From: an uncultured archaeon
Lineage (GTDB): Archaea > Asgardarchaeota > Lokiarchaeia > Sigyniarchaeales > SOKP01
Length of the DNA: 60,776 nucleotides
Assembly (NCBI GenBank): GCA_964388035.1
Contig: CAYLZE010000017.1
Span: forward strand, 1-60,776
Reading direction: 5' to 3'
Under the pieces are notes generated by a model, which ran no database searches, had not been told where the DNA came from, and saw only the letters and a program-made list of their open reading frames with translations. Every line of letters starts with the position of its first letter. Positions within the stretch are counted from its first letter, which is position 1. The translations under genes were made by a program, and so were the position numbers. Shown here one piece after another: positions 39,401-57,944 of this stretch.

Positions 39401-40615
39401 TTAAGAAACATCAGAGTTCATCATAGTAGCTAAAATAGCTTTCGAAACCTTAGCAACTTGATTAAAGTCTACTTTATCAATAGTATCCGACATGGAGTGT
39501 TTATGAGGATTTCTAAGTCCTGCCGTATCCGAAATCAATATCCCCGGAATTCCTGCTCGCCAAAAATGTTTATGGTCAGAACCTAAGAGATCTGGAAATA
39601 TTTTGTACATTTCTTCGAAAGATAATTCTGTTAAGAAGTATAAATAGGGAAGATCAATTGAACTATGTTTACAATTCATACACAGCTCATGCGCTATTTG
39701 ATTTGCATCTAGATTTGCGGCTAAAAATATAAAATCCCCCCTTTTTCCACCCCAATCTACTTTATATGATTCAAAGATATCATTATTTGCATTGGAAGGA
39801 ATTTGCTGGGAATTCGTATTTTTATTCATTGTACCTATCTCATCCGTGCATATTGCTATTTTAATTTTCTTCCCAGTAGAAAGAGCTTCTTCAAGCCAAA
39901 AATGGCTTCCAATCGTACCAAATCCACCAAGATTTTCGAAAATAGTTCCTTCTGGATAAATATCTAGAAGATCTTTGATATGATTTTTAATTGATTCTGG
40001 TATTTCTTTTCCCAATTTTTTGAGAGCTCTTAATAGAGATTTATTCGCAGTATTTCCTCCTTTAAAAAACTTCCAAAAGAGTTCAAAGAATTCTTTCATC
40101 AATGTCGAAATCGAGTATGACTTGTATCTAAACAATTCATCCATAATCCCCCATTTTTGAGCACTTTTTCTCATTCTTGATTGAATTGAAGGATTTTCTT
40201 CCTCCAATGTTGTGCTTAAAAAACGGATGGGTCCATTATATTCATTTTCGACTAAGATTCTGGCAATTTCTAACATTAAAGCAATACTGGCTGCATTATC
40301 ATTCGCTCCAGGACTATTGTATACAGTATCATAATGATTTATTAATAAGATACAAGGTTCATTTTCATCTCCTATTACACCTTCAATATTTCGATAGGTT
40401 CCAGAAAATCCCTCTATTTTAAACTTCTGTTCTCTTGTTGAGACACCAAATTCTTTCAATTTGGAATAAATATAATCTGCCGCTTGATTCAATTTATCTG
40501 GTGCATCAATTGGGTGCTTAATACCTTCTAAGTTGAGCACATGTTCATAAAGGTATTCAACATTAACTTGATTAATAATATTTTTGTTATTCGTTATTAT
40601 CCCCTTTTCATTCAT
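39401..40615 (-). CDS. M28 family metallopeptidase
   Basis: HYDT, PGANDNA, EE, SDH..FW and H...DT motifs; large helical insert. Confidence 0.88.
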   Translation of the reverse strand: MNEKGIITNNKNIINQVNVEYLYEHVLNLEGIKHPIDAPDKLNQAADYIYSKLKEFGVSTREQKFKIEGFSGTYRNIEGVIGDENEPCILLINHYDTVYNSPGANDNAASIALMLEIARILVENEYNGPIRFLSTTLEEENPSIQSRMRKSAQKWGIMDELFRYKSYSISTLMKEFFELFWKFFKGGNTANKSLLRALKKLGKEIPESIKNHIKDLLDIYPEGTIFENLGGFGTIGSHFWLEEALSTGKKIKIAICTDEIGTMNKNTNSQQIPSNANNDIFESYKVDWGGKRGDFIFLAANLDANQIAHELCMNCKHSSIDLPYLYFLTELSFEEMYKIFPDLLGSDHKHFWRAGIPGILISDTAGLRNPHKHSMSDTIDKVDFNQVAKVSKAILATMMNSDVS

Positions 40616-40655: not shown

Positions 40656-41759
40656 TTAAATTACAAATTTTCCATCGCGGTAAATCTCTTTACCATCAGC
40701 AAGGATTTGACCTTCTTTCCTCATATCACAAACTAAATCCCAATGAATTACACTTCGATTTTTACTTCCTGTTTCTGGATATCCGTTACCTAAAGCCATA
40801 TGTATGGTTCCGCCGATTTTTTCATCAAATAATATTTCTCCTACAAATTTAGATATTTCATAATTCGTTCCAATTGCAAATTCACCTACTCTCTTTGCTC
40901 CCGGTATTTTAAGGATCTCTTTTAGTATTTCTTGACCTTTTGTGGCTGTAGATTCAACGACTTTTCCATCCTTGAATTTAAGCATTATATCCTCAATCGG
41001 TTTCGACCTAAATTTACTTGGAAATGTAAATGAGATAATTCCATTTAAAGAATCTTCTATTGGTCCCGTAAAAACTTCTCCGTCAGGTAAATTTCTCTTA
41101 CCATAATGACTTATCCACTTTCTTCCCTTTACAGATAAAGTTAAATCAGTTCCCTTTCCAATTATGTGCAATTTATCAACATTATTTAGATAATCAACAT
41201 ATTTTTCTTCTTTCTGTTCTAATTCTTTCCAAATTGCAATCGGATCAGGTTTATCAAGAAAGCATGTCGTTATAATAAGATCTTCAAACTCTTCCTTGCT
41301 CATGTTTGCTTGTTGAGCCATACCTTGGGAAGGATAAGGAAAAACAATCCAATTAAGTTCACCTGCTCCTTCTCTTCTCGAGAAAGTTTGCCAAACGTCA
41401 ATTTGGGCAAGTTCTGCTCTTTGAATTTTCTTAGAGGATATATTGCTTAATTCGTTGGTATTGGCTGAAGTTTTCAATCTTATTGCAACATCGATATTAC
41501 TCACTAAGAATAAATCAAAAGGATTTTTATAGTCCAATTGATGGTCTTTTGCCTCTTTGTAATAAATGTACTCTTGCCCCGGAACATCAATTTTAATTAT
41601 AGGATGACCATCGGTATTCTTTAAAACCTCTCGATATATTTCATTTATCAAGGGAATTGTTTCAACTGAACCCCAAATTAAAACAACATTTCCTTTTTTG
41701 ATATCTGCACAATGTTTTGTGAGTAATTTTGCTATTTTATTAAAATATTCAAAAAACAC
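40656..41759 (-). CDS. M29 aminopeptidase (AmpT/PepS family)
   Basis: NLPDGEVFTGP, GEFAIG, LFDEKIGGTIHMALG and S.IHWD motifs. Confidence 0.93.
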   Translation of the reverse strand: MFFEYFNKIAKLLTKHCADIKKGNVVLIWGSVETIPLINEIYREVLKNTDGHPIIKIDVPGQEYIYYKEAKDHQLDYKNPFDLFLVSNIDVAIRLKTSANTNELSNISSKKIQRAELAQIDVWQTFSRREGAGELNWIVFPYPSQGMAQQANMSKEEFEDLIITTCFLDKPDPIAIWKELEQKEEKYVDYLNNVDKLHIIGKGTDLTLSVKGRKWISHYGKRNLPDGEVFTGPIEDSLNGIISFTFPSKFRSKPIEDIMLKFKDGKVVESTATKGQEILKEILKIPGAKRVGEFAIGTNYEISKFVGEILFDEKIGGTIHMALGNGYPETGSKNRSVIHWDLVCDMRKEGQILADGKEIYRDGKFVI

Positions 41760-41794: not shown

Positions 41795-42898
41795 TCAATT
41801 AAAAGTAAATATCTTAAATTCATTACAACATGGCGGTCCTATTGTTAAATGAAGCTCTGCGGGTGTTGTTAATAAATAAACAATACAATTAACTGTATAT
41901 ACACTCATCGGTTTGAAGTCTTGATGGACACATACAGGTCCATAGTGAGAACTAAGGATATGCTTGATTGTATCAATTGTAATCTTTTTCTTAGGGTTTT
42001 TTAATCGATATTCGAGATAATTATATCTCTCCCACGTTGTAAATGTAGGTTCAAGCTTTGGGGGAGGCATTATCAGATCATCATTAATAATGGGATGATT
42101 CGTATGATAAATCCTCCTTGCTCCTTCATAAGGAAGGAATTGAGAGATTTTGTTCGCCGAACATTCAAAATTTACTACTTTTTCATTGTTACCAATCATA
42201 TAGTTCTCAGCAGATGCATGTTTGATTTTATGAATAAAATTAATTGCATCTTCTAGGGATTTTTGTTCAAGCACCGCTCGTATTATGAAATTAACAGGTA
42301 ATCCTTCTACAGACGTATTTAAAAATCTATAAAGCGTATTCGTTGTAACTCCAATTGGTTGGTTATTCATGCCACACCATCCAATTAATCCGGCAGTTGT
42401 CGGAACTAAGGTTTCTAAGGAAGAATCCGGATGTTTAATACGTAAAACGGCATTTAATCCATCATAATCATTTAGCCAATCAAGGTTTTGTGCTAATAAA
42501 GCAGGAGAATTATCCTCTTTAAAACATCCAATTGCAGAACAATGTCCAGCAGTATCAGGAAATATTTCTCTTGAAAACCAAACCATCTCATCCTGACATT
42601 GAAACATAAAAAGGGTATCAAAATCCACTCCAGCTCCCTCTGCAATTCCTTCAATTTCTTCCAGTAAATCTGGTGTCCATTTTTTAACTGCTGGCAAAAA
42701 TTTTGTTTTTTTCATGAATAGTTTTATGACAAGTTCAGGATTTGTATGAGTCTCGTAATAAATTAAATGTTTCAATCTTTCAAGACTTTCTTCTATCATA
42801 GGTTTCAACGTTTCACCATGTATCATTCCTCTTTCTTTTGGAGAACCGTATAATTCTACTATTTTCATTTGGTTACTTTTAATCATTTTGTTTATCAT
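41795..42898 (-). CDS. C45 family Ntn-hydrolase/acyltransferase, paralogue A
   Basis: ERG..HG, EIEGIA, autoproteolytic H|CS, AQNLDW, GMN and HTNH motifs. Confidence 0.88.
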   Translation of the reverse strand: MINKMIKSNQMKIVELYGSPKERGMIHGETLKPMIEESLERLKHLIYYETHTNPELVIKLFMKKTKFLPAVKKWTPDLLEEIEGIAEGAGVDFDTLFMFQCQDEMVWFSREIFPDTAGHCSAIGCFKEDNSPALLAQNLDWLNDYDGLNAVLRIKHPDSSLETLVPTTAGLIGWCGMNNQPIGVTTNTLYRFLNTSVEGLPVNFIIRAVLEQKSLEDAINFIHKIKHASAENYMIGNNEKVVNFECSANKISQFLPYEGARRIYHTNHPIINDDLIMPPPKLEPTFTTWERYNYLEYRLKNPKKKITIDTIKHILSSHYGPVCVHQDFKPMSVYTVNCIVYLLTTPAELHLTIGPPCCNEFKIFTFN

Positions 42899-43059: not shown

Positions 43060-43244
43060 CAAATTACATTTAATTTTTTTTCAATATATCCTAATCTATT
43101 CTAAAATCCATTAATCAAGTTTTAAGGCTTTCTTTTGATTATTAATAATTGATAGAAACATTTTTATTCTAACAACAAAATAACTTTTTATTAATAAAGA
43201 CAGAAAAATCAAAATATTTTTGTTGATAATTATTAAAGATAAGT

Positions 43245-43350: not shown

Positions 43351-44436
43351 TTGAGTATTAAAATTTTAAAGTTAGAAGGAGAACCCCGTGACCGTGGATT
43401 TAAGATTGGTAATGAATTAAGGAATTTGATACATGATTCACTTGAAAGGGTAATCTCCTTGATCGAAGGAACTTTAGGTATAAAAAAAGCGGAAAAAATC
43501 CTTAGAAGATTAATAAAAGGTTCAAAATTAAAAGAAGCTGTACAAAAATGGACCCCTTCATTATGGGAAGAATTTGAAGCTGTTGCAGAAAGTGCAGAAA
43601 TAGATATTAATTCGTTATTTGCATTTCAATGTCAAGATGAAATTAATGTGATTCTTAGAACATTAGGAATTGATTTAGGTACTCATTGTAGTACATTTGG
43701 TTGTGCTAAAACAACTTCTACTCCTTCTATTGTTGCACAAACCTATGATTGGCAATGTTTTCATAATGAAGATGATATCGTAATCCTACAAATTAAAGAT
43801 CAAGATTCTTCATTTGAAACTATTATCCCGACGATTTTAGGAATAAAATATTTATGTGGAATTAATAATCAAAGTATTGGAATATGTATTAATGCTTTAT
43901 GTTCATATTTGAATTATTCTTTTAGTGGATTACCTGTTCCTTATGTGACAAGGGGACTTATTGAACAGCCAGATATGGAAAAAGCTGTGCATTTTTTACA
44001 CGATATCGAGCATGCTTCTGGATACGCGTATATGATCGGGGATTCTGAAAATATTATGAATTTTGAATGTTCTGCGAATAAAATTCAAAGATACCTGCCT
44101 TATAAGAATGCTAAAAAGATATACCATACAAATCATCCCTTAATTAATGATGATATTTTACTTAATAGAGAGATAGACGATTCATTAAGTACTACTTACA
44201 ATCGCTTTAACCTTCTTGAATCTTTTTTAAAAGATCCCTCAACTATCATTAATTTAGAATCAGCAAAAAAAATTTTATCAACACATCCAGTTTGTGTTCA
44301 TCGAGGCATTAATCCTTTTGGCGATTTTACAATTATTTCTGTTATAAATGAATTAAAGAAAGATCCTGTATTACACTTAACATTGGGTCCTCCTTGTTCT
44401 AATAAGTTCAGGGAATTACATTTTGAAGCGAAATAA
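43351..44436 (+). CDS. C45 family Ntn-hydrolase/acyltransferase, paralogue B
   Basis: FQCQDE, H|CS, AQTYDW, NFECSANKI and HTNHP, shared with paralogue A. Confidence 0.88.
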   Translation: MSIKILKLEGEPRDRGFKIGNELRNLIHDSLERVISLIEGTLGIKKAEKILRRLIKGSKLKEAVQKWTPSLWEEFEAVAESAEIDINSLFAFQCQDEINVILRTLGIDLGTHCSTFGCAKTTSTPSIVAQTYDWQCFHNEDDIVILQIKDQDSSFETIIPTILGIKYLCGINNQSIGICINALCSYLNYSFSGLPVPYVTRGLIEQPDMEKAVHFLHDIEHASGYAYMIGDSENIMNFECSANKIQRYLPYKNAKKIYHTNHPLINDDILLNREIDDSLSTTYNRFNLLESFLKDPSTIINLESAKKILSTHPVCVHRGINPFGDFTIISVINELKKDPVLHLTLGPPCSNKFRELHFEAK

Positions 44437-44462: not shown

Positions 44463-46346
44463 TTATAACTTTTTTTGAACGGAAAGCTCATAATAACACG
44501 TTTCGGAAGTTTTATTAAAGGATTTTAAAGAAAAATTAAGAGGGATGCCAAATTTTTGGAGAAGTTGGTCTATAAAACCACAATTAATGGGATAAAGTAA
44601 AAAAGAACCCTCATCTAAGAATTTGAGCGCTTTTATTCGAATGAGAATTGCTTGGGGATCTTTATTATCGAATGCAGGCACGATCTCGCATTCTAAGTCT
44701 TCACCAAATAGTTTGCTTGATTGTAAGAATTTCAGAATAAAAGTTGCTGATTTTAATAAATCAATCATTCCATCCTTATTAATAAATTTTGACTTAAAAT
44801 CAAATTCCTTAAAAGGAAAGTTGCTCATTTCACAAATTTCTCTTCCGATTTTATTCATCAATTCCCATGCTTCTCCTTCTGAAATGATCATTTGTTGAAA
44901 ATATGCAGCGAGAAATTTTTTAAAATAGTCATCGTGATTTATTTCATACATCTCAATGATAATTCCTTTTTCGGTTGGTGATATGAACCATACTGTGAAG
45001 GATCCTATAATTTGGGAATATACTAACCCTTCAAGTTCCATTTTTGCTAAATATTTTTTTATTGTATTTCGATGAATTTTAGTTTCTTCATTAATGCGGG
45101 CAACTGTTGCACCAACCTCGAATTTTGCCAAGAATTTTAAGATTTCCTCCTTGATCATTGTTTTTTTTTGCTTCTTTTTTTTAAGTTTAAGAAGAATTTT
45201 TTGATCTTTTCTTTCTTCCGTTTTAGTGTTTAATAATTGCTTGAGAAAATTGAACTCGTCGTTATCCAAAAATTTTGGTTTATATCCGATAAGGATATCC
45301 AAAAAAGCGGATGTAAGATTCCAATTTGGAGAATGGAACGAGTTCATTAATATGACCATTCCAAGTGATTTTTCAGGGAATAAGAAAAGATGAGCTAAAA
45401 AACCAAACTCGCCTCCAGAATGTCCGACTATTTTAAATCCTCGATATTCACCTATAAACCACCCGAGTCCCATATAAGCATTATGTGAGTTAATATTTGT
45501 TTTAATTATGGGTTCCCAGAGCAATTCATAAGTAGCTGGCTTGAGAATTTGCTTATCTTTAAATTTTCCCTTATTTAAACTAGCAATAATGAAATTACAA
45601 ATTTCTATCACATTTGAATGAAATGTTGAACTTGGAGCTTGATTTCGACTATAAGGATATATTTCATTCACGATTAATCGCTTTTGTTTGCGGATGTGAG
45701 GTAATACTAATTCATTGTCTGGAACCTCCTCCTTTAAAAAGGTACTTTTTTTCATATCTAAAGGAAGCAAGACATTTTTTTTCATATATTCCTCAAAAGA
45801 CATTCCTGATACTTTTGCGATTACATCTCCTAATACATCATACCCAATATCAGTATACGCAAAACGAGTTCCTGGTTTAAATAATAAATTTTTGTCCGCT
45901 AAACTATCGACATACCTTTCAAGGGCGTTTTCATCATATTCAGGGGTGTCATAAACCGTTTTATCAACATCAGGTAACCCTGAACTATGGTTTAATAATT
46001 GTTTAATTGTAATTCTTTTAAAATCTGAATCTTTTAATTTGAAGTAAGGTAAATATTTTATCACGGGCGATGTAAGATCTATTTTTCCTTGCTCTTCAAG
46101 CTGCATTATCGCAACAGCGACGAATATTTTTGAAATTGAAGATGTATGGAAAATGGATTCTGGTTGAATGGGTTCTTTTTTTAAAATGTTTTTAACTCCA
46201 AATCCTTTTGAGAAAACCAGAGCATTGTTTTTTACGATCCCAATAGCTAATCCTGGGATTCCATTTAGCCCTAACAGTTTATTTATTTTATTAATAATTG
46301 AAGCTTCTAATTCATGTATATTTTCTTTTTTTATTAAATGTGCCAT
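44463..46346 (-). CDS. Beta-lactamase-fold (class C/S12-like) serine hydrolase fused to winged-HTH and putative V4R-like domain
   Basis: SISK, LLNHSSG, YTD and GHSGG in about aa 1-355. From M397: EEILKFL...IHRNTIKKYL..ME.EGLV...IG (wHTH), then IGREI...CGFID. Confidence 0.8.
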   Translation of the reverse strand: MAHLIKKENIHELEASIINKINKLLGLNGIPGLAIGIVKNNALVFSKGFGVKNILKKEPIQPESIFHTSSISKIFVAVAIMQLEEQGKIDLTSPVIKYLPYFKLKDSDFKRITIKQLLNHSSGLPDVDKTVYDTPEYDENALERYVDSLADKNLLFKPGTRFAYTDIGYDVLGDVIAKVSGMSFEEYMKKNVLLPLDMKKSTFLKEEVPDNELVLPHIRKQKRLIVNEIYPYSRNQAPSSTFHSNVIEICNFIIASLNKGKFKDKQILKPATYELLWEPIIKTNINSHNAYMGLGWFIGEYRGFKIVGHSGGEFGFLAHLFLFPEKSLGMVILMNSFHSPNWNLTSAFLDILIGYKPKFLDNDEFNFLKQLLNTKTEERKDQKILLKLKKKKQKKTMIKEEILKFLAKFEVGATVARINEETKIHRNTIKKYLAKMELEGLVYSQIIGSFTVWFISPTEKGIIIEMYEINHDDYFKKFLAAYFQQMIISEGEAWELMNKIGREICEMSNFPFKEFDFKSKFINKDGMIDLLKSATFILKFLQSSKLFGEDLECEIVPAFDNKDPQAILIRIKALKFLDEGSFLLYPINCGFIDQLLQKFGIPLNFSLKSFNKTSETCYYELSVQKKL

Positions 46347-46643
46347 ATTTTTTACAAAATATATAGATTTCCTATATTTTATTTTTAAAATGTATCTTAT
46401 ATAGTATAGATTACTTTATTTTACTATAATAAATTGGTATTTTTTCTTAATTTTCTGTCTTCTTTTATTAATTCTCTTAGGAATTGAATTTTAACAAAGA
46501 AAAATGAATGTTATGTATTAATTTTTTTGCTATTTATTTATAGGTAAATATACAAAAATTTTATATATATGCATACAAATATTAATTAATTAATTATTTA
46601 AATGATAAATTAAATTTAAAACAACTCGGGGATTTTATAAAAG

Positions 46644-48047
46644 ATGGAAGTTGAAAAAGAGAAAGAAACAGATGAGAAAAATCATTCAACTTTTACCCTC
46701 ATTTCTTATAGCTTAGCTGGTTTTGGGGGTGGAACGGCGTTTGAATTCATAGGTGCATATGCACTCTATTTTTACGAAGTTGAAGTTGGTTTATCTATCT
46801 TACTTTACACAATTGCCTTTATTTTCTTCACGATTTGGAACGTGGTAAAAGATCCAATCGTCGGATACTTTTCTGATAAACCTCATTTTTATACAAGACG
46901 GTGGGGTCGACGTTTTCCTTTAATAATTATTGGATATCTTCCCGTGACTATCATATTTTTACTTATATTTTCACCGCCTGATATCAATGCTGGCAATAAT
47001 TCTGGAGTCGTGTTTATTTGGCTTTTAGTATTTCTTTGCATTTGTTCAGGATTATATACGTTGGGCAACATGAATCATAGGGCATTATTTCCTCAAAAAT
47101 TTCGAAGCAATAGAGATCGACGTTATGTTACAGGATATAATTTGGTTGGGTGGGCAGCAATGCAATTTTTCGGAGTGGTAGTACCACCATTAATCATTAT
47201 ATATGGAGATAAGTCAAGTTTTTTCATAGCAGCATTATTAATTGTTTTAATCACAACTCCTTTTATAATCTTAGGGATTCCTGGCTGTCGTGAAGATAAG
47301 CAAATGATTGATGATTTCTTAAAAAGCGAGGAAAAAGTAAATTCAACGGGTAATTTTTTTCATATAATGAAAATACTTTTTATGAATCGTAACTTCATCG
47401 CAATACTCGCTGTTTGGATGTGTGCAAATACTTATAATGCAATTGTTCTTAGTTCAGTAATTTATTATGTCAGATATGTTTTACAAATAGAGGAATTCTG
47501 GGGTAGTATAATTTTATTAGGTTATTTAGTAACAGGACTGATTACGATTCCCTTCTGGATTTGGATAATAGGTAAGATAGGAGAAATCAAAACAATATAT
47601 ATTGGTGTTATAGGAATGGCTATATCTATACTCCCTATCTTACTATTTAGAGAATTAATTGCAGCTATTTTTGCCAGTCTATTAATAGGAATAGCAGTTA
47701 GTGCTTTACAATGTGCTGATGAACCATTATTTGCATCTGTTATCGATCAAGTGGTTGTTAAAGAACAACGGCGTAGAGAAGGAGTTTATCATGGGGTTTT
47801 AAGTGTCGTATTACGAGCTGTAACCCCCCTAACTATAGTTATCATCGCAATTACTCACATTTTAACAGATTTCGATGCAAGTGCAAGTGTACAAACACCA
47901 TTAGCTCAATTGGGCATAGTTTTTGATATGGCATTAATTCCTATTATTCTTGCCTTAATAGGAGTTTTCATTTTTTGGAGAGCTTGGCGTATACCAGAAC
48001 CAGAAAGGGTAGAACTTCGTGCAAAATTAAGAGAGATCAAATTATAA
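46644..48047 (+). CDS. MFS transporter, GPH family
   Basis: WNVVKDPIVGYFSD, WGRRFP and RRREG motifs. Confidence 0.9.
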   Translation: MEVEKEKETDEKNHSTFTLISYSLAGFGGGTAFEFIGAYALYFYEVEVGLSILLYTIAFIFFTIWNVVKDPIVGYFSDKPHFYTRRWGRRFPLIIIGYLPVTIIFLLIFSPPDINAGNNSGVVFIWLLVFLCICSGLYTLGNMNHRALFPQKFRSNRDRRYVTGYNLVGWAAMQFFGVVVPPLIIIYGDKSSFFIAALLIVLITTPFIILGIPGCREDKQMIDDFLKSEEKVNSTGNFFHIMKILFMNRNFIAILAVWMCANTYNAIVLSSVIYYVRYVLQIEEFWGSIILLGYLVTGLITIPFWIWIIGKIGEIKTIYIGVIGMAISILPILLFRELIAAIFASLLIGIAVSALQCADEPLFASVIDQVVVKEQRRREGVYHGVLSVVLRAVTPLTIVIIAITHILTDFDASASVQTPLAQLGIVFDMALIPIILALIGVFIFWRAWRIPEPERVELRAKLREIKL

Positions 48048-48397
48048 AAAATAGGAAATTTAATATTAAACTTTTTTTTTTTTTAATACTCTTTTTGATT
48101 TAAAGGGGAGGATTTCAACATTTTATACTTGAAATCTGAGGATATATATTTTTAAAGTAATATTCGATTAAAAATTAGAAGAATACCCTCTTTATTATTG
48201 ATTTACATAGATTTTCCAGTTGAGGAAAAATAACCAGAGGCCATAGAATAGATGATGATGTCAATTAACTTATAACCGTTCTAGTAGAAGCAGAAATGAT
48301 TTATAGTTTAAATCCATTAGGATGGATAAAAAATTGATTCTTAATAATTGAAAAAAATAATTTATATTTATCTTTTTTATTCTTTTTTCATCTAACT

Positions 48398-49444
48398 TTA
48401 ATGTAAATCACTTAGCGATACATTCATGTATTCATTTTTTTCTCTATTATGAGGATATAGCTTTAAATGAATAGTATTATTTATATTAAAAATCGCCGTA
48501 TATATCGTGCTAAAGATATATCCCGTTTCGGGTCCTTTGATAGAATTAAAAAATATATATTTATCCCAAAGTAATTTCAAAGCATTTTCTTCAGTTTTCT
48601 CTAAATTAGGCAATAATTTAATACCCCTTTTATATCTTGATTTGGAATCGCTGATTCTAGGTAAGGGTATATCTTTGAATTTTATGGAAATATGATGATT
48701 TGTATGGAAATATTTGTCAGTAATTTCCGTTAAACAGGATTCATCCGCGGTTGTTTCAAGATTAATAGCTACTTTTTCATTCAATGAAACAATATTATAA
48801 CTTACTCCTCCCGATCTTGGAGAGAAGGATTGAGCTTTCTCAATAGCTTCTTTGAGAGTTTTAGATTCTAACATTGCTCGTCCAAAAAGAATTCGTGAAA
48901 GTCCAATCCTCTTTACAGGATTAGGAAGGCTATTTGAGGTAATAGTAATCCCATGATTATTAAACCCAAAAGAAATTCCTGGAATGCAACCTGGATAACA
49001 ATGAGAAAATATTTTAGTACCATTTTCAAGTTCCATTATTGAAAAATAAGAGTATTTTCCCATTATGCTTTCAAAATCTTCATTATGTGCAAGAATAATT
49101 TCATCATCATTTATGAAAAATAAGGATGAGCAATTGTTCCCTACCTCATCTTTGGGAGGTACATGGCGAAAATTCGCGATAAGAATATCACGATATTCAA
49201 TTCCACAACCGTCAGAAATTCCTTGAATTTCCTTAATATATTGGGGAAAATGCTTTTTAGCAAGAGATTCAACTTGATTAATTCTTTCTGGTCGTTCTTC
49301 ATCTAATTTCTGAAATTCTTTAAATTGATTGCATTCTTTCAATGCTTTTTGAATCCGTTCTTTGAAATGTTCACCTACTTGCTTTCCTATATCATAATTA
49401 TTGCCATTTACTTTCACTAAAGGAAAGGACTTATTTTTATCCAT
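48398..49444 (-). CDS. C45 family Ntn-hydrolase, paralogue C (more divergent)
   Basis: EIQGIS, N|CS, AHNED, GFN and HTNH motifs. Confidence 0.86.
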   Translation of the reverse strand: MDKNKSFPLVKVNGNNYDIGKQVGEHFKERIQKALKECNQFKEFQKLDEERPERINQVESLAKKHFPQYIKEIQGISDGCGIEYRDILIANFRHVPPKDEVGNNCSSLFFINDDEIILAHNEDFESIMGKYSYFSIMELENGTKIFSHCYPGCIPGISFGFNNHGITITSNSLPNPVKRIGLSRILFGRAMLESKTLKEAIEKAQSFSPRSGGVSYNIVSLNEKVAINLETTADESCLTEITDKYFHTNHHISIKFKDIPLPRISDSKSRYKRGIKLLPNLEKTEENALKLLWDKYIFFNSIKGPETGYIFSTIYTAIFNINNTIHLKLYPHNREKNEYMNVSLSDLH

Positions 49445-49828: not shown

Positions 49829-50965
49829 ATCGATCAATCTAATAAAAAAGTTTATGATATTTTAAATTCCACGAGCATAATAGATACCTTAAGTCATGGG
49901 CCAATGCTCTGGGATGCAGAATTGGTCGCTCTTAATGATGAAATGCTCGCTAAAGGAATGAATGCTTGGGAGGTTGTTCCCAAATTGGTATTAAGTCTTG
50001 CTAAAAAGCTCGTGCAGGATGACCCCTTTTTTCAATCCTATAAAGACGCTTGGAAACAATCGGGTGTCAACTGCGTGAGCTGGACAATTGGCCCCTTGCA
50101 TTCAAAACCATATTCTTTTGAGGGAGTATTCCATAATTACGCGTTCATGCAATATCTTTTCGATCATCGATCAGATTTTTTAATGAAAGTATTAAAAGCA
50201 AGTGATATTGAAAAAGCGATCAAGGAGAAGAAGAAAGCTATAATTTTAAATTTCCAGAGCATGGAGCATATTGGTACGGACATCGATCTGGTCGAGCTCT
50301 ATTACATGATGGGCGTGAGAATCATGCAATTAACGTATAATTCTAAGAATCCGGTAGGAACCGGATGTACGGCAAGAAGAGATCGGGGCTTAACGGATTT
50401 TGGAAAACAAGTAGTTGAGAAAATGAATGAGTTAGGTACAATTGTAGATGTTTCCCATTGTGGGATTCAAACTTCAATCGATGCGGTGGAATATTCAAAA
50501 AGCCCTGCCATTGCATCTCACACCTTTTCAAAGCAATTATATGCTCACGATAGAGGAAAACCTGATGAATTATTAAAATCTATTGCAGAAAAGGGGGGTT
50601 ACATTGGGGTTTTAGCCGTGGCAGGCTTTTTAACGGAAAATCCTAAAACGACAGTCTCAAATTGGCTCGATCATGTAGATTACATCACCAACCTCGTTGG
50701 CATCGATTCTGTGGGGATCGGAACGGATTTTTATGGATTTTCGGTTCCCGAAAAACTTGCAACCGCAATTAGTGATTTGTTAGATGTGCTTGGTTTTAGG
50801 CCTGAACATAAAGCTAGTTTTGCCACTAAAGTCGAAGGGTTTGAAGATTATACAAAATTTCCAAATCTCATTGAAGGGTTAATCTCAAGAGGGTACAGTG
50901 ATTCTGAAATCAAGAAACTAGCGGGTGAGAATTTTTTAAAAGTATTTAAAAAAATAGTGGGATGA
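49829..50965 (+). CDS. Membrane dipeptidase (M19) family amidohydrolase, paralogue 2 (probable ATC start; ORF track starts at 49904)
   Basis: The in-frame upstream extension IDQSNKKVYDILNSTSIIDTLSHGP matches IIDSLSHGP of 29841-30980. DVSH, ASH and GIGTDF motifs. Confidence 0.85.
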   Translation: MDQSNKKVYDILNSTSIIDTLSHGPMLWDAELVALNDEMLAKGMNAWEVVPKLVLSLAKKLVQDDPFFQSYKDAWKQSGVNCVSWTIGPLHSKPYSFEGVFHNYAFMQYLFDHRSDFLMKVLKASDIEKAIKEKKKAIILNFQSMEHIGTDIDLVELYYMMGVRIMQLTYNSKNPVGTGCTARRDRGLTDFGKQVVEKMNELGTIVDVSHCGIQTSIDAVEYSKSPAIASHTFSKQLYAHDRGKPDELLKSIAEKGGYIGVLAVAGFLTENPKTTVSNWLDHVDYITNLVGIDSVGIGTDFYGFSVPEKLATAISDLLDVLGFRPEHKASFATKVEGFEDYTKFPNLIEGLISRGYSDSEIKKLAGENFLKVFKKIVG

Positions 50966-51038: not shown

Positions 51039-51548
51039 TTATTCTTCTACATTGAAAAAGATTCTCGGATCATCTTTTACTACTTCTGTTACAATCTGGG
51101 TTGTAGTTCTTTCCACATCATCTGAATTAAATAAGATTTTCATTTTATCAAATAATTCCTTTCTATTCTTTCCTCGCCCTAGAATCACAAAATCGTTTTC
51201 ACCGAAAACAAAGTACACCGCCCAAATACCAGGAATTTCGGCTAATTTTTTACCCACTTTTTCATGATAACCCTTTCCAAATTTTGCTCTTACATTCACG
51301 ATCATTTGAATGTCGAATCCTAATTTCGAAGAATTGATTTTAGCATAATACCCTTCAATGATACCCTCATCTTCCAATCTCTTTATTCGGTAATGGATAG
51401 TAGATTTGGGGATGGATAATTCTTCCGCAATTTCATATAAAGGTTTTCTACAATCCCGCTGTAGAATGTTTAAAATTTTCATATCGGTATCATCTAAAAA
51501 ACTCCGTCGTCCCGACATTTTTTCATCGGGAATTTCATTTTCTGCCAT
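51039..51548 (-). CDS. Lrp/AsnC family transcriptional regulator
   Basis: LDDTD.KIL..LQ.D.R...EIA...ST...RIKRLE..GII and VFGEND motifs. Confidence 0.92.
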   Translation of the reverse strand: MAENEIPDEKMSGRRSFLDDTDMKILNILQRDCRKPLYEIAEELSIPKSTIHYRIKRLEDEGIIEGYYAKINSSKLGFDIQMIVNVRAKFGKGYHEKVGKKLAEIPGIWAVYFVFGENDFVILGRGKNRKELFDKMKILFNSDDVERTTTQIVTEVVKDDPRIFFNVEE

Positions 51549-57062: not shown

Positions 57063-57944
57063 TTGGATGAAATTGACTTTCAAATCCTCAAAATATTGAA
57101 TAAGAATTGCCGGATCTCCCTTTCGAAGATTTCAAGAGGGTTGGGTTTATCTGTAAGAACGATATCTCGAAGAATTAACCTATTAATTGATAATCACATT
57201 ATCAGATATTTTACTGTAAACTTTAGCTTTGAACGTCTTGGTTATAGAAATTATATTGGTTCTTTAAATCCACCCAAGGAGAATCACTCCATTAATTTTT
57301 TCAAAGAGCTTCAATTCATACCTGAAATTTATCAAATGTGGGAACTTCTCGATGGAAGCATCGTGTTTTCTATTTTTAGTGAAAATTCTGCTCACCTTGA
57401 GAAAATAATTACTAAATTACTTGAAACAGGAGCTAAACTTAATAGTTATGTAGAACCCCGTTCGCATTTATCCCTCGATTATCCCTTTTCTAATATGGAT
57501 TGGAGGATCATTTGTTATTTATTTAAAGATAGTAGGGCTCCTAAACAAAAAATCGCTATTGATTTAGGAATAAATGAAAAAACTGTTGCACGGAGATTAA
57601 AACGAATGAGGACCATGAATTTGGTACAATTTACACTCATTTTAGATTGGTCCAATGTTAAGGGAATGATTCCGGCGGTAATTTCTTTAGAAACAATAGG
57701 CCCTTCAAAACCGATTTATTTTAAATTAAAAGAAGACAGTAAAATAAAATATTGGAGGAACGTGGGTGATGTTTCACCTACTATTATTTTATTTGTTTAC
57801 GCCCAGAATCTAACCGAGCTTTATGAAATGTGTGAAATTTTAAGAAGGAGAGAAGATATTAAAGAGTGTACTTTAAGATTTGAAGTAAGATTTTATGAGA
57901 ATTCAAATATCATCGCAGATGCCATTTTACAAAAAATCCAATAA
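57063..57944 (+). CDS. Tandem (double) Lrp/AsnC-type wHTH regulator
   Basis: Two repeats: DEIDFQILKIL..NCR...TISRRI and DWRII..L..DSR...TVARRL. Confidence 0.85.
   Translation: MDEIDFQILKILNKNCRISLSKISRGLGLSVRTISRRINLLIDNHIIRYFTVNFSFERLGYRNYIGSLNPPKENHSINFFKELQFIPEIYQMWELLDGSIVFSIFSENSAHLEKIITKLLETGAKLNSYVEPRSHLSLDYPFSNMDWRIICYLFKDSRAPKQKIAIDLGINEKTVARRLKRMRTMNLVQFTLILDWSNVKGMIPAVISLETIGPSKPIYFKLKEDSKIKYWRNVGDVSPTIILFVYAQNLTELYEMCEILRRREDIKECTLRFEVRFYENSNIIADAILQKIQ

Follow-up and report, generated by a model that had tools for sequence, protein, structure and literature searches.

Fusions of enzymes to transcription factors, and regulators that pair a winged helix-turn-helix (wHTH) with a V4R domain, are each already known kinds of protein. 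RbkR is an archaeal example of the first, a bifunctional regulator in which an enzyme is joined to a wHTH (PMC5397151), and MsvR of the second, an archaeal one-component regulator with wHTH and V4R domains that binds DNA as a homodimer (PMC3729527). The Bet3/TRAPPC3 fold and V4R have been placed in one superfamily (PMC2253512, PMC10933270), with Asgard TRAPPC3/V4R folds being proposed as ligand binders that carry a Cys4 Zn site (PMC10933270). On the enzyme side stands Pab87, a D-stereospecific S12 peptidase proposed to act as a digester of muropeptide debris (PMC2651629). Here, we describe an open reading frame (ORF) at 44463..46346, on the reverse strand of a 60,776-nucleotide stretch of DNA (contig CAYLZE010000017.1 of GenBank assembly GCA_964388035.1; ‘the window’ from here on) from an uncultured Helarchaeota-type Asgard archaeon, in which a penicillin-binding-type serine hydrolase and a complete regulator share a single chain, with the former possibly controlling the latter. 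Our favoured reading, on which the evidence seems to us to be about evenly balanced, is that enzyme and regulator truly form one chain and act as a chimera of the ‘trigger-enzyme’ kind, with putative catalysis and DNA binding, a proposed coupling between the two, and candidate targets and substrate.

Two halves in one open reading frame

The ORF (P0001) is a single, ATG-initiated frame that encodes 627 amino acids plus stop; its base composition resembles that of the host at large and does not differ between the two halves. The original prediction, made from the letters alone, had described a hydrolase followed by a Lys-rich linker, a wHTH from M397 and an alpha/beta domain, and Pfam and AlphaFold/Foldseek agree on this layout. 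Residues 1-355 (45282..46346, on the reverse strand as are all parts of the gene given here) make up the serine-hydrolase domain, which is MEROPS S12-like, belongs to a bacterial-type subclade, and is matched by PF00144 (Beta-lactamase) across residues 24-340 (E 1.8e-61, 208.6 bits against a Pfam cut-off of 27). The linker, residues 356-396 (45159..45281), is predicted to be helical and then Lys-rich; it leads into the wHTH (residues 397-458, 44973..45158) and then a Bet3/TRAPPC3-fold domain of the V4R superfamily (residues 459-627, 44466..44972), which contains C505, C553, C589 and C617. It had also been claimed that the protein lacks a signal peptide or transmembrane helix, and this holds: a hydropathy scan of all 627 residues found no signal-like or transmembrane segment, with the 19-residue Kyte-Doolittle mean peaking at 1.49 and the first 35 residues reaching up to 1.64. 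The fused protein is, as judged from its sequence, cytoplasmic; a hydrophobic, signal-like N-terminus is present in 68 of the 120 best homologues of the enzyme half.

A search for the same architecture, suggested as a check on the original prediction, recovered a second protein (P0002; 619 amino acids, from an ENA metagenome contig), which shares the arrangement of domains and aligns over 98% of the length at 72% identity. Between the two, the enzyme domains are 76% identical, the linkers 56%, the wHTHs 74% and the Bet3-like domains 66%, and the linker is of identical length; at the position equivalent to M397, however, P0002 has an Ile, such that its regulator half lacks a separate start codon at that point. 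We consider it very probable that the fusion is real, rather than an artefact.

It is also rare. Besides P0002, two billion-scale protein searches returned no other fused protein; amongst 39 relatives of the regulator half, P0002 is the only one with an enzyme domain; and in 40 related genomes, from genus to order level, no fused form was found, with hydrolases and regulators always separate and never adjacent. Within a 201-genome sample of the phylum, the sole full-module match lying in an open frame of more than 400 amino acids is the ORF described here. Searches made from the enzyme side gave the same picture of separate proteins: with the full protein as query, a related-locus search of genomes other than the host’s returned enzyme-domain relatives only, and the ESM Atlas yielded PF00144 clusters only, at 0.85. 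A literature search for PF00144-HTH fusions produced nothing relevant, and the combination of PF00144, wHTH and Bet3 fold was not found there. The fusion is therefore unusual, but confined to one small lineage.

The linker itself provides some insight into how the two halves came together. Its Lys-rich segment, residues ~375-396, is encoded by runs of A8 and A9 at ~45160-45185. With one A fewer in the A8 run, the enzyme frame ends in a TGA sharing bases with the ATG of M397, the exact first residue of the wHTH module; ATGA is the classic stop/start overlap between neighbouring genes. Such an arrangement raises the prospect that this is not one protein in vivo, either through an extra A introduced as an assembly error, or through slippage on the A8/A9 runs to give a 396-amino-acid enzyme and an ATGA-coupled regulator, and the presence of both A_AAA_AAG and the A9 run in the linker frame could be read in the same way. 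We judge this to be very unlikely. An independent assembly, that of P0002, contains the same in-frame fusion with no Met at the junction; the host assembly appears to be built from short reads (211 contigs, N50 of 42 kb, scaffold Ns), and A8 errors are uncommon in assemblies of that type; and such runs are commonplace in the host genome (2255 of A8 and 889 of A9). No RNA structure of the kind that would stimulate slippage was found downstream of the runs (z 0.22), and programmed slippage on them found no support.

Given that deletion of a single A re-creates the ATGA overlap precisely at M397, a one-base slip is the probable origin of the fusion: two adjacent, overlapping genes, for a hydrolase of ~396 amino acids and a regulator of 231, were probably joined by the gain of one base in a poly(A) run, with P0002 presumably losing its redundant internal Met after the event. 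It had been cautioned that the A-rich linker could be a former intergenic spacer; the idea survives in a modified form, in that the linker sequence probably once formed the 3’ end of the enzyme gene and is now translated in a different frame. On this history, the locus offers a clean example of gene fusion via a one-base homopolymer change at an ATGA overlap.

The serine hydrolase and the regulator

The motifs ascribed to the enzyme half by the original prediction (SxxK, YxD in place of YxN, and HSG) are all present, and intact in an alignment of the 120 best homologues. Motif 1, S70-I-S-K73 (46128..46139), supplies the presumptive nucleophile Ser and general-base Lys; motif 2 is Y164-T-D166 (45849..45857) and motif 3, the equivalent of KTG/HTG, is H309-S-G311 (45414..45422). 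S70, K73, Y164 and G311 are found in 120 out of 120 sequences and H309 in 119, whilst at position 166 there are 115 Asn and just four Asp, the latter in the fused protein, its orthologue P0002 and two unfused proteins.

The same prediction set the enzyme beside known beta-lactam sensing systems, a framing under which it might be a cytoplasmic beta-lactam sensor or resistance regulator. It does have the penicillin-recognising fold and its motifs, yet we regard this role as extremely improbable. All beta-lactamase family cut-offs lie far above its scores: NCBIfam gives sub-threshold matches only, to AmpH, class C beta-lactamases, PBP4B and D-aminopeptidase, and the bla_class_C model, matched over residues 12-210, reaches 92.8 bits against a cut-off of 415, well short of class C membership. 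The closest solved structure is that of the D-peptidase Pab87 from Pyrococcus abyssi (2QMI; E 1.2e-43 over residues 16-358), followed by Flp, LACTB, ClbP, alkaline D-peptidase and DD-carboxypeptidases, such that its relatives are D-peptidases, esterases and generic serine hydrolases. Its neighbours are peptidases and not resistance genes, and, to our knowledge, Archaea have no beta-lactam target.

A tree of 61 enzyme sequences puts the fused pair (support 99) in a fully supported clade along with hydrolases from Clostridium (46-49% identity), Aminicenantes and Bacteroidota and two unfused archaeal proteins, apart from the clade of archaeal paralogues of ~470 amino acids. The host genome encodes about 20 PF00144 paralogues, mostly ~470 amino acids long and Pab87/CubicO-like, the majority of which form that archaeal clade with sequences from Helarchaeota and Heimdallarchaeota; five of them lie within 15 kb on contig C2 (C2:85643-100128). 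Directly after the gene for the nearest unfused archaeal relative of the enzyme half (L006, on G036:C55; 47% identity) there is a gene of the enolase superfamily (MR_MLE), a superfamily that includes dipeptide epimerases; this neighbour fits with D-peptide metabolism.

Has the enzyme half begun to decay? At 107 conserved sites the fused pair departs from consensus 22-23 times, as compared to 18-19 for other outlying, unfused lineages, and its root-to-tip length in the 61-sequence tree is ordinary. With its catalytic Ser-Lys-Tyr-His/Gly residues intact, the sequence points to an enzyme that is not decaying. Saying this, six positions (Y130, W132, N166, A168, H236 and D313) are altered solely in the fused pair and kept in all other lineages checked, with three of the six flanking motifs 2 and 3. 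Taken together with retention of the catalytic residues, the changes suggest an altered preference for substrate or ligand, brought about by remodelling of the pocket through N166D and the five other changes particular to the fused lineage. We take the enzyme most likely to be a peptidase or amidase whose substrates are amides that contain D-amino acids or are unusual in some other way, though it is possibly an esterase.

The same substitutions could be seen as the signature of a pseudo-enzyme or ‘acyl-enzyme’ sensor, whose PF00144 domain binds the signal, or is stably acylated by it, without useful turnover and serves as an input only. Only the fused pair has A69S, N166D, A168G and D313E and the changes at Y130, W132 and H236, and the other PF00144 paralogues of the host could carry the catalytic load. 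We think this improbable, as Ser, Lys, Tyr and His-x-Gly are all kept, divergence is no greater overall than in the unfused outlying lineages, YxD is found in unfused relatives too, and there is no membrane or protease relay of the type used by BlaR1.

Turning to the regulator half, residues 397-627 match a dozen wHTH families in Pfam, all below threshold (for TrmB, 16.4 bits against 25.6), but across the family to which this half belongs, wHTH models match 28 out of 28 aligned members (best HTH_24, 2.7e-14). An AlphaFold model of these residues, made with the family alignment, has a mean predicted local distance difference test score (pLDDT) of 87.9 and a predicted template modelling score (pTM) of 0.71; in it, module positions 1-62 superpose on the wHTHs of the ArsR/SmtB/MarR type (CzrA, SmtB, MarR, TtgV) at 0.6-1.2 Å over ~59 residues. 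Residues 397-458 are accordingly modelled as a winged HTH fold that would be expected to bind DNA.

Module positions ~68-231 form an alpha/beta domain in the model, for which the best structural match is 2cfh_A (Z 11.4, root-mean-square deviation 3.3 Å, 145 of 161 residues), with the Thorarchaeota TRAPPC3 7yh2_A superposing at Z 10.8; Foldseek also returns BcsD/CesD and H-NOX. Sequence identity to Bet3/TRAPPC3 proteins is 8-12%, and the domain, as modelled, has a Bet3/TRAPPC3 fold and so belongs to the V4R superfamily at the level of fold only. The description ‘V4R-like’ is borne out to that extent, and falls down at the level of the Pfam family: PF02830 (V4R) does not match the protein at E<=10, a scan of the host genome with PF02830 at E<=1 misses the ORF, and alignment of the regulator family to the V4R proteins of the host with hhalign is not significant (probabilities of ~1%). 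Neither Pfam nor NCBIfam has a model for the last domain; in NCBIfam, none covers the wHTH plus Bet3-like module, and the MsvR model does not match the regulator half beyond its HTH. As a separate observation, two V4R-domain proteins of 198 and 159 amino acids (L018 on G000:C118 and L019 on G000:C18; PF02830 sub-threshold) adjoin genes for Ras/Arf-like GTPases.

The original prediction pictured a bare HTH and ligand domain added to an enzyme, and here the data say otherwise: residues 397-627 correspond to an entire protein of a stand-alone regulator family. A HMMER search of 1.84 billion cluster representatives gave the 39 regulator-half relatives referred to above (E<=1e-3), nearly all of them 220-290 amino acids long and aligned across the whole 231 residues; those with names are called ‘HTH domain-containing’ or ‘ArsR family’ and come from metagenome-assembled genomes of Candidatus Helarchaeota. 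Three stand-alone proteins, 230-243 amino acids long (L002-L004, at C3:16952-17650, C158:3818-4495 and C106:16811-17476), are paralogues in the host genome, which comprises 5.47 Mb in 211 contigs. When the 201 genomes of the phylum sample were searched with a profile, full-length members were found in 27 of the 40 genomes of the host’s own family (f1), with most matches outside it being to the HTH and first helices only. The wHTH plus Bet3-like module is thus a rare stand-alone regulator family of ~230-260 amino acids, mostly within the host’s own family. Three metagenomic proteins (P0149-P0151; 433-462 amino acids) have the module at their N-terminus, followed by ~200 residues without a Pfam match.

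Stand-alone members occur in unrelated contexts (next to an acyl-CoA-ligase-like gene, radical SAM genes or a Rag-like GTPase), which suggests that the family is a general regulator scaffold. Many of them have a basic tail ahead of the wHTH, so a Lys-rich segment before the HTH is not foreign to the family. The Bet3/V4R-fold domain probably mediates dimerisation and the binding of a ligand or metal. C505, C553, C589 and C617 are present in both fused proteins, and in 1, 2, 4 and 14 of the 28 family members, respectively.

These properties lend themselves to a view in which the two modules are independent of each other: a near-neutral one-base slip joined them, the hydrolase simply catalyses, and the Bet3-like domain senses a ligand of its own, or a Zn or redox signal. 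The sole effects of fusion would then be that the two modules are made in equal amounts and that the enzyme is tethered or dimerised. On the whole we find this view less likely than not, although it deserves to be taken seriously. The regulator half is complete and of the stand-alone type; its four fused-lineage cysteines, rare in the family, recall the Cys4 Zn site of Thorarchaeota TRAPPC3 and the redox cysteines of MsvR (PMC10933270, PMC3729527); just two sequences carry the fusion; and a single-base change separates the fused from the two-gene state. Set against this, the two proteins have stayed fused while diverging by 28% in sequence, P0002 having lost its internal Met and the linker having kept its length, and the six pocket-flanking residues that have changed only in the fused lineage suggest adaptation after, or along with, the fusion.

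The surrounding genes

The setting of the gene is as first described, between C45 genes and a divergent transporter. A convergent C45 gene lies at 43351-44436 (forward strand), and on the other side an intergenic region (46347..46643), the presumed promoter/operator, in which no motif could be made out, is shared with a divergent MFS_2/GPH-family transporter gene (46644..48047, forward strand), which is a candidate target. Two further C45 genes are found at 41795-42898 and 48398-49444 (both reverse strand), and all three encode Ntn-hydrolase proenzymes. Along with genes for an M28 peptidase (39401-40615), an M29 aminopeptidase (40656-41759) and an M19 dipeptidase (49904-50965), this gives a neighbourhood of amide-bond hydrolases plus the MFS_2 transporter; a gene for a GH3 glycosidase lies farther along the window. 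Just past the M19 dipeptidase gene is one for an Lrp/AsnC regulator (51039-51548, reverse strand), and a 293-amino-acid protein with two AsnC-type HTH domains (57063-57944, forward strand) is an alternative candidate regulator of the peptidase genes.

At E<=1e-20, five relatives contain no counterpart of the C45 neighbour, and their matches to the transporter reach at most 36% identity (34% in the genome of the same genus), which argues that the region is accessory. The transporter family is very greatly expanded in the genus: the same-genus genome (G001) contains 53 matches to the 46644-48047 gene, at ~24-34% identity and spread over many contigs. Recent horizontal transfer of the island was considered and rejected, as its G+C content of 0.307, against 0.333 for the genome, corresponds to the 8th percentile amongst 12-kb windows, and the fused gene is host-like in composition in each of its halves.

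A 29-nucleotide element of the C45 promoter is present in two copies (43031/43245), in the window and in the genome alike; elsewhere in the genome there is no match with <=2 mismatches, the nearest having 3, and the promoter region of the fused gene itself has no copy. A search for repeats across 38.4-51.1 kb produced weak AT-rich matches only. One 30-nucleotide stretch is 83% identical between the divergent C45 intergenic region (43133-43163) and the convergent gap after the transporter gene (48332-48362); its core is palindromic and ATTATTAATAAT-like, and it may be due to chance in such AT-rich DNA. Scans for sigma-70 promoters and terminators remained at the level of shuffled sequence, the model being of bacterial type and not suited to an archaeon.

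Coupling, and comparison with known systems

Synthesising these results, we propose a speculative scheme for how a chimera of the trigger-enzyme kind might work. The protein would bind DNA via a wHTH dimer close to its own gene and that of the divergent transporter, and possibly at the C45/peptidase genes; its grip on DNA would change when the hydrolase site is occupied or acylated, or when product binds in the Bet3-like cavity; and uptake and breakdown of the amide substrate would in turn track its supply. In its strongest version the hydrolase is the true input of the regulator, with DNA binding being switched either when substrate acylates S70 or when product is passed into the Cys-lined Bet3-like cavity, and this we put forward tentatively, as a rather doubtful proposition. 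Read in this way, the protein would be a soluble, single-chain counterpart of BlaR1-BlaI, put together from a bacterial-type D-peptidase and a TRAPPC3-fold factor, for which the A8/A9 runs might, through slippage, determine how much fused relative to separate product is made; here, too, we are more inclined to doubt than to accept.

Several observations weigh against a trigger enzyme. The fusion is known in two sequences only, such that selection for the fused state is weakly documented; the YxD motif also occurs in two unfused homologues and is thus no mark of a sensor function; and stand-alone members of the regulator family are never found beside PF00144 genes in the genomes searched. As the regulator already contains a domain that may act as a sensor, the case that the enzyme must be the sensor is weakened. 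Full-length AlphaFold prediction (pLDDT 64, pTM 0.54, residues 358-488 below 50) leaves the interface between the domains unreadable. No operator-like motif common to the promoters of the fused gene and its neighbours was found, and the Lrp/AsnC regulator at 51039-51548 could equally well control the peptidase genes.

If the proposed coupling is true, this would be the first penicillin-binding-fold enzyme to be wired directly to a DNA-binding domain, and a compact natural sensor for D-peptides or amides that might serve as a scaffold for biosensors. Whether or not the coupling is real, the locus points to a family of one-component transcription factors in Helarchaeota-type Asgards that use a TRAPPC3/Bet3-fold domain as their effector. 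This bears on how the ‘TRAPP-like’ eukaryotic signature proteins of Asgard archaea are read, as ligand-sensing regulators rather than vesicle tethers.

How, then, does the protein compare with the systems described so far? Like Pab87 (2QMI; PMC2651629), it is an archaeal, cytoplasmic PF00144 protein with the same Ser-x-x-Lys, Tyr and His-x-Gly motifs, and the gene for Pab87 also sits amongst those for amino-acid and peptide transport and metabolism. Pab87, however, ends in a lipocalin domain that builds an octamer, where the fused protein has the wHTH and Bet3-like module instead, and the fused enzyme half belongs to a separate, bacterial-type clade and has Asp for Asn in motif 2. By sequence, the closest proteins are the bacterial PF00144 hydrolases (from Clostridium, Aminicenantes and Bacteroidota; 40-55% identity over the enzyme domain), most of which have a signal-like N-terminus; they end in TPR repeats or in nothing, and never in an HTH, and they keep Y130, W132, N166, A168, H236 and D313, whereas the fused pair does not.

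On the regulator side, MsvR likewise has an N-terminal wHTH followed by a V4R-superfamily domain with cysteines of suspected function (PMC3729527), but is without a fused enzyme; the last domain of the fused protein is nearer to Bet3/TRAPPC3, with no Pfam V4R match. The Thorarchaeota TRAPPC3 (7YH2/7YH3; PMC10933270) shares the fold, and the four cysteines are candidates for a mirror of its Zn site. Bet3/TRAPPC3 is a subunit of a tethering complex, in contrast to the domain seen here, which is fused to a wHTH to make a transcription-factor module.

With the trigger enzymes RbkR, PutA and BirA, the protein has in common a metabolic enzyme and a DNA-binding domain in one chain; it differs in the family of the enzyme and in a regulator that already has an effector-type domain, and its two functions are predicted ones. 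Finally, in the BlaR1/BlaI and MecR1/MecI systems, a penicillin-binding-fold sensor ultimately controls a wHTH repressor, as might be the case here. Those systems use two proteins, a transmembrane sensor and a zinc-protease (M56) relay, whilst the fused protein has neither a transmembrane segment nor a Pfam match of that kind and places both folds in a single chain.

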